Shown piece after piece: positions 51,119 to 53,366 of a stretch of DNA of 64,000 nucleotides. Source of the stretch: Escherichia phage vB_Eco_J-01. A program made the translations under genes and the position numbers. How positions within the stretch are numbered: position 1 is the stretch's first letter; each line of letters opens with the position of its first letter. The notes beneath the pieces were generated by a model. It was not told the DNA's origin, did no database searches, and saw nothing but the letters and a program-made list of their open reading frames with translations. The DNA lies in sequence record PQ438393.1, one strand, 5' to 3'.

Positions 51119-51476
51119 GTGCGCTACTAATCAACATGATATTTGTTACCAACCTCTTACTTGGATTGGTGAGGATCACTATGCTCAACGTGTTATAGTA
51201 TGCGCTGCGAATAAGTATATTCTCAATAATGGCAAAGAGTTAATTATTCCTTGTGTTAGGCATGCAAATCCTGTACTATCTGCACAACTTAATGTTTTAA
51301 AAGATGCAGGATTGATTGATAAACTGTTTTGCTTACCTGATAATCAAGGGTTTATTGATCAGTATTATAACTGGTGGAGTCGCAAAGATGCTTATATCAT
51401 TGCAGATAACGCCAAACAAATTAACTACGAAAGAAATGGTCACGACAGTGAACTATTCAGCGAGGGATTATACTAA
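51114..51476 (+). CDS. hypothetical protein
   Basis: 120 aa Cys-containing ORF. Confidence 0.5.
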   Translation: MMCATNQHDICYQPLTWIGEDHYAQRVIVCAANKYILNNGKELIIPCVRHANPVLSAQLNVLKDAGLIDKLFCLPDNQGFIDQYYNWWSRKDAYIIADNAKQINYERNGHDSELFSEGLY

Positions 51477-52027
51477 TGTTTATTACAAGCGATTTGCATT
51501 TTATGCACAAACGTATCCGAGAGTTTGCTCCTGAATATCGCCCGTGGGAAGATATGGAGCATATGACAGAAGCACTGATCGAAGCATGGAATAAATGTGC
51601 CACAACACCAGGAGTAAAGATGTACCATCTTGGGGACTTCTGTTTCGGGACTGAAGAAGATACCCGTAAGATTGCTTCCCGTCTCCAAGGGGATATTACT
51701 TACTGTGTTGGGAACCATGATTATAGTAAACACAGAAAAGTGCTTGCAGAGTATGGAGAAGTTGTGTATTATGACGAAGTGAAATATCAGAAGCTGTTCT
51801 TCGTCTTAAGTCATTACCCTATGGCTGCCTGGAATAAACAAGGGCGTGGATCAATCATGCTACACGGACACTCTCACGGATCATTCCCTGATCATTTGTA
51901 TGGGAAAATGTTGGATGTTGGTTGGGATGCACACGGGAAAATCTTGCATTTTGACGAAATCATCTCTATTATGGATAAGCGTGATATTATTGTTGTAGAT
52001 CATCATAAAATAATCAAAGGAGATTAA
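51476..52027 (+). CDS. calcineurin-like metallophosphoesterase
   Basis: Motifs DLHF (N-terminus), GNHDY, HGHSHG typical of the binuclear metallophosphatase fold; TAATG overlap with upstream gene. Confidence 0.75.
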   Translation: MFITSDLHFMHKRIREFAPEYRPWEDMEHMTEALIEAWNKCATTPGVKMYHLGDFCFGTEEDTRKIASRLQGDITYCVGNHDYSKHRKVLAEYGEVVYYDEVKYQKLFFVLSHYPMAAWNKQGRGSIMLHGHSHGSFPDHLYGKMLDVGWDAHGKILHFDEIISIMDKRDIIVVDHHKIIKGD

Positions 52028-52028
52028 G

Positions 52029-52961
52029 GTGGCTAATTTCAATTGTGATGACCTGATTGCAAAAGGTTTAGTACATAAAAAAGAAGTTAAATCTGGAGAG
52101 TATGCTGGTCTTGCTGTACTTAAATACAAAAACAATGTATTCTGGGATAACTTGTGGAACGTTGACAAACGACTTTTAGATTGTCGTGGGTTGGTTGTTG
52201 ACTCAGAAGACAATGTTGTTATTTGGCCTTTTACTAAAATCTTTAATCGTTTTGAAAATGGTACAGATCTTCCAGCAGACGAAATTGTAGATGCTGTCCG
52301 TAAAGTAAACGGTTTTATGGCATCTGTAGGTGTGTACAAAGGGAAACTTGTTGTATCAACAACAGGGAGCCTAGAATCAGATTTCGCAATTATGGCAAAG
52401 AACCGTATTATTTCCGAGTGTGACGACATAGAGTATTTCATTAAGTGGACAGAAAGTGCAAAAGCAACTTTCCTTTTTGAAATCTGTGATCCTTCTGACC
52501 CACATATTGTCGAAGAAGAACCAGGCGCATACTTAATTGGAGCAAGAATTCAAAATCTTGATGGGACAAGTTTCATGTTACCTGAAGGTGTTCTTGATGG
52601 GATTGCATCTGTTACAAAATTTAAACGTCCTGAAGTTTATCCGATGATTAAATTTTCAGATGTTGTTGAAATGTCTAAACATTGTAAACACGAAGGGTTT
52701 GTTGTTCGTGAAACAAACTACCCGTTTAACTTACTGTTAAAGATTAAGTCACCATACTATCTTGCTAAAAAATTCCTTATGCGTGGTGGCAATAAGAAGT
52801 GGGATATGATTTGGGACAACCCAAACAATGCTAAACAAATTGTTGACGAAGAATATTATACTTTGCTAGAATGGCTTCGAAACAACTTTACTAAGACTCA
52901 ATGGGCTGCTTTAGATCCACAAGAGCGACGTAAAGAAATAGAAAACTTCTTTGGAGGCTAA
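52029..52961 (+). CDS. ligase-like nucleotidyltransferase (putative RNA ligase/adenylyltransferase)
   Basis: 310 aa; candidate lysine-nucleotidyltransferase motif I KVNGF; GGAGA RBS then GTG; sits between phosphoesterase and kinase genes. Confidence 0.45.
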   Translation: MANFNCDDLIAKGLVHKKEVKSGEYAGLAVLKYKNNVFWDNLWNVDKRLLDCRGLVVDSEDNVVIWPFTKIFNRFENGTDLPADEIVDAVRKVNGFMASVGVYKGKLVVSTTGSLESDFAIMAKNRIISECDDIEYFIKWTESAKATFLFEICDPSDPHIVEEEPGAYLIGARIQNLDGTSFMLPEGVLDGIASVTKFKRPEVYPMIKFSDVVEMSKHCKHEGFVVRETNYPFNLLLKIKSPYYLAKKFLMRGGNKKWDMIWDNPNNAKQIVDEEYYTLLEWLRNNFTKTQWAALDPQERRKEIENFFGG

Positions 52962-53366
52962 ATGAAACAACTTATCATCTTACGTGGTGTTTCAGGTGCA
53001 GGTAAATCTACAGTAGCAGAAATTATTTCTGAAGGTTATTGGCCTATCTGTGAGGCAGATCAATATCATTACACAGAAAGTGGTGTTTACGATTGGAAGC
53101 CAGAGAATGTAGGTAAAGCACACGCATGGTGTCAGAGTATTGTTCGTGATGCTATGGCATCTAATATTAAAAAGATTATTGTCTCTAACACTTCAACCAC
53201 AGAGAAAGAACTTAAACCTTATTTAACTCTTGCTGAAGAGTTTGGTTATCAAGTTATCTCTTTAGTTGTTGAAAATAGGCACGGTAACGACTCAATTCAT
53301 GAGGTTCCACAACATATTCGTGATCAGCAAGAGAAACGTCTTCGCAGTTCACTTAAGCTACAATAA
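52962..53366 (+). CDS. P-loop kinase, polynucleotide 5'-kinase-like
   Basis: 134 aa; Walker A GVSGAGKST at N-terminus, Walker B-like IIVSNTSTT; minimal kinase size. Confidence 0.6.
   Translation: MKQLIILRGVSGAGKSTVAEIISEGYWPICEADQYHYTESGVYDWKPENVGKAHAWCQSIVRDAMASNIKKIIVSNTSTTEKELKPYLTLAEEFGYQVISLVVENRHGNDSIHEVPQHIRDQQEKRLRSSLKLQ

Follow-up and report, generated by a model that had tools for sequence, protein, structure and literature searches.

What do three tightly packed genes of an Escherichia phage, encoding a phosphoesterase, a ligase and a kinase, accomplish together? The genes lie at positions 51476-53366 of a 64,000-nucleotide stretch from Escherichia phage vB_Eco_J-01 (record PQ438393.1; hereafter the window), and a preliminary description had read them as a bacterial Pnkp split into separate genes that repairs broken RNA. 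Effectors that cut tRNA or other RNA (PrrC, RloC, PARIS, Cas13 and retron- or toxin-linked nucleases) are now seen as common anti-phage weapons. The T4 Pnkp/Rnl1 pathway, which counters the anticodon nuclease PrrC, is to our knowledge the sole phage RNA repair pathway proven in vivo. From homology and gene linkage, we consider it probable that the trio forms a T4-like heal-and-seal RNA repair pathway made of stand-alone parts, with a non-orthologous 3'-end healer. The earlier interpretation as RNA repair thus stands in part: homology and a conserved neighbourhood support it, whereas kinship with Pnkp and a dedication of the phosphoesterase to the ligase do not hold up.

Positions 50400-53700 share 98.9% identity with Escherichia phage muut and 97-99% with about 55 other phi92-like myoviruses; judged by these matches the source phage is a Justusliebigvirus (Stephanstirmvirinae, phi92-like). 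The trio is placed at the start of a long plus-strand block of early, replication-type genes, which begins past a 410-bp divergent intergenic region (48582-48990). All three open reading frames (ORFs) of the preliminary description are present on the plus strand (Table 1), and the tight packing ascribed to them is borne out by the junctions: the stop codon of the upstream ORF overlaps the phosphoesterase start (TAATG), a single base separates phosphoesterase from ligase (TAA-g-GTG), and ligase and kinase abut with zero gap (TAA-ATG). Shine-Dalgarno-like GGAG/GAGG motifs precede each of the three starts, and the layout indicates that the three genes are translationally coupled. In this region, matches resembling promoters or terminators are no commoner than in shuffled sequence, so the limits of a transcription unit or operon cannot be read from them. 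GenBank records of relatives label the trio as phosphoesterase, RNA ligase, and ATPase or polynucleotide kinase, and a PADLOC scan for defence systems returned nothing relevant.

The middle gene had been described as a lysine nucleotidyltransferase with a KVNGF motif. The motif is there (K92-V-N-G-F), and the family can be named as Rnl1 RNA ligase, with matches to Pfam RNA_lig_T4_1 (PF09511) at 3e-14, above the cut-off, and to PHROG 562 at 1.7e-68; the protein database holds 2571 homologues at E <= 0.001. An AlphaFold2 model, built on an alignment of 39 homologues, has a predicted local distance difference test (pLDDT) score of 93. Its best PDB folds in Foldseek are T4 Rnl1 (5tt6, 2c5u and 9do4, E ~1e-13), followed by fungal Trl1 ligase domains (E ~1e-12 to 1e-13) and then archaeal Rnl3, and the top 50 fold matches include no ligase domain of a bacterial Pnkp. 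The query-normalised TM-score is only 0.60-0.64; the sequence alignment to T4 Rnl1 ends at residue 236/250, and the C-terminal domain of the model is short (~70 residues, 242-310) and all-helical. Family profiles were needed for sequence searches of the PDB, given that the single ligase sequence found only uninformative chance matches and the single kinase sequence only weak ones. The ligase profile matches T4 Rnl1 alone (5.4e-10). The T4 motifs ECRG, EKFFN, TKEDG, FEFVAP, EGYVA and FKIKS are matched in this alignment by R53, K70/F72, K92, E151, E222-G223 and K238/K240, all of them invariant in 40 homologues; the T4 counterparts are the residues known to be essential from T4 Rnl1 mutagenesis. 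Fold and motifs identify the protein as a bona fide Rnl1-family RNA ligase with K92 as the likely nucleophile, and ATP-dependent joining of 3'-OH and 5'-PO4 RNA is its predicted activity.

The third gene carries the P-loop that had been claimed for it (G9-VSGAGKST-17) and matches Pfam AAA_33 (7e-10), PHROG 2071 'ATPase' (9e-58) and PHROG 505 'polynucleotide kinase' (6e-9). A profile made from 44 co-located homologues matches T4 Pnk over its full length (4.7e-9), followed by Capnocytophaga Pnkp1 (2.9e-8), the tRNA kinase PSTK (8e-8), CthPnk (4e-6) and mammalian PNKP (5e-6). Matches to nucleotide kinases are limited to the P-loop stretch, as seen for adenylate, shikimate and nicotinamide-riboside kinases, and are far weaker, except for adenylate kinase 9 (6.5e-9, residues 3-33). 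Across the 44 members, Pfam assigns AAA_33 to all 44, a KTI12/PSTK-type domain to 14 and dNK to one. A deoxynucleoside monophosphate (dNMP) kinase, the identity named beforehand as speaking against RNA repair, is thus not what was found, as dNK is limited to that single member and the PHROG 139 dNMP kinase match spans only residues 1-36 around the P-loop. Invariant positions are R8, G9, G14, K15, D33, Y87 and H113, of which D33 aligns to the first Asp of the T4 Pnk RDDY motif, the general base of that enzyme. R38 and R126 of T4 Pnk make contacts to the 5' nucleotide and transition state; equivalents of these arginines are not conserved in the alignment of the kinase family, and the residue after D-x-Y, an arginine in T4 Pnk, is H36 in the present kinase and F in most of the family consensus. 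The T4 Pnk lid segment is an insertion relative to the family, which has its invariant H113 in an (I/V)HxVP motif. Missing arginines together with an invariant histidine argue for a distinct subfamily and not for loss of function, and the kinase groups with polynucleotide and RNA kinases, not with dNMP kinases. Its signature (RGxPGSGK..., (I/V)HxVP) may resemble that of eukaryotic N4BP2/N4BP2L kinases.

The first gene was taken for a calcineurin-like phosphoesterase, and this is upheld by matches to Pfam Metallophos (1.7e-5) and PHROG 547 'phosphoesterase' (5e-55) and by a complete set of metal-binding motifs (D6-x-H8, G53-D54, G79-N80-H81-D82, H113 and G131-H132-x-H134), invariant across 44 homologues. 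These motifs mark the protein as an intact binuclear enzyme, for which phosphoester hydrolysis at a two-metal site is a safe assignment, unlike its substrate. The family profile has a single solved relative in the PDB, Aquifex aq_1665 (1xm7, E 3.9e-24, residues 3-121), and up to E of 1 it finds aq_1665, GpdQ-like and YfcE-like proteins and neither lambda phosphatase nor Pnkp. By profile, the enzyme belongs to the aq_1665 clade, not to the lambda-phosphatase clade of Pnkp. We propose that it may act as the 3'-end healer, clearing a 2',3'-cyclic or 3'-phosphate.

Gene linkage carries the pathway beyond these single proteins. A scan of viral contigs from the ligase side gave 70 loci, with ligase relatives 30-96% identical. 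Of these, 67 contain the phosphoesterase, 63 the kinase and 61 both genes, although the loci are phylogenetically related (a few being near-duplicates) and such raw counts overstate their independence. Where the ligase is less than 50% identical, both healers are still found in 49 of 58 loci, against a base rate of ~600 or more matches per healer family among 2.9 million contigs. The order is phosphoesterase-ligase-kinase in 33 of the 70 loci and kinase-ligase-phosphoesterase in 26, with several rarer arrangements that include opposite strands. That the trio outlasts permutation of its order argues for functional coupling. Most environmental loci hold the bare trio without cREC, sirtuin or MazG genes, and the trio is known from 687 sequenced phages of Escherichia, Pseudomonas, Vibrio, Klebsiella, Acinetobacter, Streptomyces and other hosts.

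From the kinase side, the best 80 of at least 533 viral loci hold the phosphoesterase in 54, an Rnl1-like ligase in 35 and some RNA ligase in 48. In 16 of these 80 the RNA ligase is an unrelated one, with Pfam RNA_ligase (PF09414) behind an N-terminal PHA02142 OB domain (e.g. L196 6418-7563), an architecture that we read as Rnl5-like. This ligase adjoins the same kinase family, usually together with the same phosphoesterase family, and replaces the Rnl1 type. A kinase that partners RNA ligases of two families is a classic signal of non-orthologous displacement within a shared pathway. Dependence within the module is asymmetric: the ligase needs both healers, which also occur paired or alone. 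Ten environmental loci have the strict order kinase, phosphoesterase and a ~416-aa (amino acid) protein (Table 1). We considered this protein as a possible new ligase and rejected it; it has a HEIKH (HExxH-like) motif, no Pfam family and no ligase signature.

Besides the relatedness of the loci, several points weigh against RNA repair as the task of the whole trio. Among the best 80 of at least 578 viral loci anchored on the phosphoesterase, the ligase is found in 39 and the kinase in 38, and 37 lack both; these 37 have no other conserved partner, the commonest neighbouring family occurring in six and DNA ligase in five. The phosphoesterase is therefore not dedicated to the ligase, and its removal of cyclic phosphates is a role that we infer. 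Two sister phages, L078 (phosphoesterase 91% identical) and L080, retain cREC and the phosphoesterase and lack ligase and kinase at the syntenic spot. The genes for DNA ligase, MazG, RdgC and exonuclease on the flanks are retained in both, and L078 also keeps T4_Y16D and has a 112-aa ORF where ligase and kinase would sit. The ligase-kinase pair hence behaves as an insertion/deletion cassette, and the phosphoesterase must be useful without ligation. The aq_1665 clade has no characterised member, and aq_1665 itself is a structural-genomics 'hypothetical protein' with no assigned function, which makes this sole solved relative uninformative on the substrate. The all-helical C-domain of T4 Rnl1 (residues ~255-374) is credited with tRNA specificity; the C-terminal ~70 aa of the present ligase have no sequence similarity to it, and a tRNA substrate thus has no support from homology. 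We found no experimental paper on the three proteins in the literature searched, with the 2016 RNA-repair survey by Burroughs & Aravind in NAR outside our coverage.

The phosphoesterase-only loci and the two sister phages suit a reading in which phosphoesterase and cREC process small molecules or signals, and in which ligase and kinase are a separate RNA-end cassette inserted alongside. Candidate substrates would be the cyclic-phosphate or ADP-ribose (ADPR) products of defences that consume nicotinamide adenine dinucleotide (NAD), or cyclic nucleotide alarm signals. Directly upstream of the repair-gene block, on the other strand and divergent from it, lie two genes (Table 1) that by domain content and annotation are the NARP1 pair (Namat + Adps). 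NARP1 is an NAD-reconstitution anti-defence pair, experimentally defined in BASEL phage Bas63, and ADPR-cyclic-phosphate has been observed as its by-product. In 36 of the 70 ligase loci, NARP1-like genes fall within the same 13-kb locus, and in L031, L034 and L045/46 they directly adjoin the trio. Iyer et al. suggest that ADPR>P, besides RNA ends, may be a substrate of cREC and calcineurin-like enzymes (PMC9503650). However, seen from the ligase side the link to the phosphoesterase is nearly absolute and persists through reshuffling, the kinase-phosphoesterase pair recurs with a different RNA ligase family, and the phosphoesterase-only loci contain no conserved NAD-related partner. The experimentally defined NARP1-associated 'phage phosphatase' (Osterman et al. 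2026), a candidate that we rejected for the identity of the phosphoesterase, is a Macro-domain protein and not a metallophosphoesterase. We regard signal processing as a possible but unlikely function of the pair. Still less likely, in our judgement, is an arrangement in which the aq_1665-type phosphoesterase and cREC would form a free-standing 'cyclic-phosphate eraser', to which ligase and kinase, as a mobile cassette, would add full RNA repair. Its targets could be RNA termini bearing a 2',3'-cyclic phosphate or ADPR-cyclic-phosphate-type products of host defences or NARP1, and it would explain why L078 and L080 keep cREC and phosphoesterase and why the set often travels with NAD-rebuilding genes.

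The surroundings suggest another task, namely processing of DNA ends (5'-OH/3'-phosphate nicks, or a PdeM/MPE-like nuclease) in support of DNA ligase, RdgC and exonucleases during replication or recombination. The cluster does share its block with a DNA ligase, RdgC, a 5'-exonuclease and a DnaQ-like exonuclease (Table 1), of which the preliminary description had rightly listed the second ligase and the two exonucleases. The MPE of Pseudomonas putida is a binuclear metallophosphoesterase from a conserved DNA-repair operon and a DNA endonuclease (PMC7826289), and stand-alone polynucleotide kinases can act on DNA ends too (PMC11571804). The phosphoesterase gives a weak match to NCBIfam PdeM (TIGR04123; E 0.0043), but at 16.5 bits it is far under the cut-off of 150, and DNA ligase homologues occur in only 15/80 phosphoesterase and 12/80 kinase loci, compared with RNA ligases in 39 and 48. 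On score and linkage we rejected the phosphoesterase as a PdeM-like partner of DNA ligase. The sealing enzyme between both healers is an Rnl1-family RNA ligase, not a DNA ligase, and DNA-end processing is very improbable as the function of the trio. That the annotations mislead is hardly credible. The ligase would then serve mainly in tail-fibre attachment, which is the second activity of T4 gp63, and the kinase would act on nucleotides or nucleosides for nucleotide or NAD metabolism. The name of PHROG 562 ('RNA ligase and tail fiber protein attachment catalyst'), weak P-loop-only kinase matches (dNMP-kinase PHROG 1.4e-4, nicotinamide riboside kinase 3e-4) and NAD-salvage-like genes nearby speak for it, but the aligned ligase motif residues are all invariant in the family, the ligase gene lies in the early/replication block away from tail genes, T4 Pnk aligns over the whole kinase and the nucleotide-kinase matches span just the P-loop, and RNA ligases from two different families are linked to the kinase.

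The heal-and-seal reading places the trio closest to T4. The logic is the same (5'-kinase, 3'-end phosphoesterase and Rnl1-family ligase), Rnl1 is the nearest solved relative of the ligase both by profile and by fold, and the kinase aligns to the whole kinase domain of T4 Pnk, including the first Asp of RDDY. However, the T4 kinase is fused to a HAD (DxDxT) phosphatase, whereas the kinase here is a stand-alone protein of 134 aa and no HAD domain is found in any ORF of the cluster. Healing of 3' ends would instead fall to an unrelated binuclear metallophosphoesterase. The ligase is also 64 aa shorter than T4 Rnl1 with a C-domain dissimilar in sequence, and the three genes are contiguous here, unlike in T4.

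Bacterial Pnkp resembles the trio in function only. The three superfamilies behind the split-Pnkp claim are indeed present (P-loop polynucleotide kinase, binuclear metallophosphoesterase and covalent nucleotidyltransferase ligase), but the ligase is nearest to T4 Rnl1 and Trl1, and the phosphatase of Pnkp belongs to the lambda-phosphatase clade in place of the aq_1665 clade. Pnkp is moreover one polypeptide, whereas here three ORFs have their own stops, starts and ribosome-binding sites. Pnkp works with the 2'-O-methyltransferase Hen1 as partner, and no methyltransferase domain is found in the ORFs of 48991-57353. Pnkp1-Rnl-Hen1 offers a precedent for a ligase split from its healing enzyme (PMC4411300). 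In fold, Trl1 ligase domains come almost as close to the ligase model as T4 Rnl1 does, and in Mucorales a stand-alone ligase and a stand-alone kinase can work as separate proteins (PMC11571804), although the Mucorales kinase matches over the P-loop only. Trl1 differs in its reliance on a 2H cyclic phosphodiesterase, in the 2'-phosphate that it leaves behind and in its need for Tpt1; neither 2H, Tpt1/KptA nor sirtuin is present here. The nearest published description is that of Iyer, Burroughs, Anantharaman & Aravind 2022, who predicted a sirtuin-centred RNA-repair neighbourhood (type 2) in Escherichia phage V5 and Proteus phage Mydo, with a T4-like tRNA ligase, cREC, nucleotide kinase, MazG and calcineurin-like phosphoesterase (PMC9503650). 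The window holds every element of it except the sirtuin. The phosphoesterase, 'occasional' in that paper, is nevertheless near-universal beside the present ligase clade.

In the pathway that we infer from the observed sequence, structure and linkage, the trigger would be a host or competitor endoribonuclease that cuts RNA, most plausibly in a tRNA anticodon loop. The cut would leave a 2',3'-cyclic phosphate and a 5'-OH, ends that are established for PrrC-type nucleases. The metallophosphoesterase, possibly helped by cREC, would turn the cyclic or 3'-phosphate end into a 3'-OH. The kinase would phosphorylate the 5'-OH, as suggested by its homology to T4 Pnk and Pnkp1 and by the conserved aspartate, and the Rnl1-type ligase, adenylylated on K92, would activate the 5'-phosphate and seal the break, a step suggested by the aligned T4 Rnl1 motif residues, which are all conserved. 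Precedent for the 3'-healing step comes from the metallophosphoesterase domain of Clostridium thermocellum Pnkp (CthPnkp), which heals 2',3'-cyclic phosphate ends (PMC2190708). The repaired RNAs are probably tRNAs, and the module probably serves to counter host RNA-cutting defences.

Of the ~17 tRNAs noted earlier for the window, ARAGORN finds 16, in a single cluster (Table 1); a relative's annotation lists one extra 'tRNA-OTHER' near 44807-44885, where ARAGORN makes no call in the window. Several of the tRNAs match known target species of anticodon nucleases. Together, the trio, the 16-tRNA cluster and NARP1 look like a counter-defence island, and the position of the trio beside translation- and NAD-protecting modules fits a role in escaping abortive-infection defences. 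The CCA-adding-like enzyme of the preliminary description is a nucleotidyltransferase of 197 aa, but its CCA identity is weak: the PolyA_pol/CCA-enzyme head domain scores below threshold (E 0.006, 17.4 bits versus a cut-off of 23), sequence searches of the PDB give no significant match (best E 0.32, an unrelated hypothetical protein), and the protein is roughly half as large as a CCA-adding enzyme and encoded 50 kb from the repair genes. A part in restoring tRNA ends or wobble bases would be speculation. Phage Antha (L003) is largely collinear with the window, apart from an offset of ~2 kb at the left end (1-6700), where the nucleotidyltransferase starts at 644 in the window and 2647 in Antha and a tail protein at 3859 and 5862. 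The coordinates agree again by 47.7 kb, which implies compensating indels in the structural region.

Accessory genes surround the trio, and cREC, phosphoesterase, ligase, kinase and MazG-like gene all lie inside 5.6 kb. The cREC gene was overlooked earlier. It is found in 10 of the 70 ligase loci; in the rV5-like L006-L010 and L015 it separates ligase from kinase, and in L018 it follows the ligase directly. Aravind's group predicted a cyclic-phosphate-opening role for cREC and pointed out that it is linked in operons to RNA ligases (PMC7824862, PMC9503650). We regard it as a probable accessory of the module. The 119-aa T4_Y16D gene, whose stop overlaps the phosphoesterase start, was considered as a fourth member and left uncertain; its linkage is inconsistent, and its confident AlphaFold2 model has no PDB fold match. 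The MazG-like gene, present in only 12 of the 70 loci, is a peripheral part of the published rV5-type neighbourhood. A SIR2 gene (PF02146, 1.3e-23) follows the kinase in 11 rV5-like or Phapecoctavirus-like loci (L006-L015 and L018; e.g. L007 5284-6060), and a tblastn search of the 64-kb window with an rV5-like SIR2 protein gave nothing better than E 1.7. The coiled-coil protein encoded directly after the kinase is labelled 'hol-like chemotaxis' by PHROG and 'DNA polymerase I' in one GenBank record, labels that look like annotation artefacts.

Table 1 Coordinates of the repair genes, other features of the window and related loci (loci outside the window are given by their handles).
Feature	Position	Strand	Basis or content
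Metallophosphoesterase, 183 aa	51476-52027	+	Pfam Metallophos, PHROG 547
Rnl1-family RNA ligase, 310 aa, GTG start	52029-52961	+	PF09511, PHROG 562
Minimal P-loop polynucleotide 5'-kinase (predicted), 134 aa	52962-53366	+	AAA_33, PHROG 505
cREC (cyclic-phosphate-processing receiver-like) protein	50617-50958	+	PF20274 cREC_REC, 3e-14
T4_Y16D-family protein, 119 aa	51117-51476	+	PF26092, PHROG 839
Coiled-coil protein, 106 aa	53376-53696	+	
ATP-dependent DNA ligase	54108-55223		PF01068 5.5e-11, PHROG 114 5e-75
MazG-like nucleotide pyrophosphohydrolase, 240 aa	55421-56143	+	PF01503 PRA-PH 3.2e-7, PHROG 671 6e-28
RdgC, recombination-associated protein	56469-57353		
5'-exonuclease	57733-58767		
DnaQ-like exonuclease	58764-59726		
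Nicotinamide-phosphoribosyltransferase-like	45883-47616	-	
Phosphoribosyl-pyrophosphate (PRPP)-synthetase-like	47688-48581	-	
Cluster of 16 tRNAs	42391-45136	-	ARAGORN; includes Lys-UUU, Tyr-GUA, Asn-GUU, Thr-UGU and three CAU tRNAs
Nucleotidyltransferase, 197 aa	644-1237	+	PHROG 1614 3e-34
Syntenic relative of 50600-53400 without ligase and kinase, L078	5145-6896		
Syntenic relative of 50600-53400 without ligase and kinase, L080	5321-6558		
~416-aa protein, L232	7094-8344		
~416-aa protein, L214, L220, L206, L222, L221, L223, L203, L178, L237			

The module is real and widely conserved, and its kind had already been described by comparative genomics as a prediction (PMC9503650). Given that both the idea and the neighbourhood type are published, the concept is unchanged. 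What is new is the near-universal aq_1665-type phosphoesterase beside the present ligase clade, the asymmetric dependence between the genes, the natural relatives without ligase and kinase, and the swap of ligase family beside the same kinase.

The trio would represent a compact T4-type pathway built from non-orthologous parts. Its carriers include therapy-relevant phages and phages of the BASEL collection that are amenable to genetic manipulation, Cas13a selection having been applied in Bas63, and the relatives without the ligase-kinase cassette are ready-made natural controls. If the reading is true, it would give a function to a large uncharacterised clade of metallophosphoesterases (at least 578 viral loci), provide a second, widespread model of phage RNA repair, and aid the prediction of which phages escape RNA-targeting defences.

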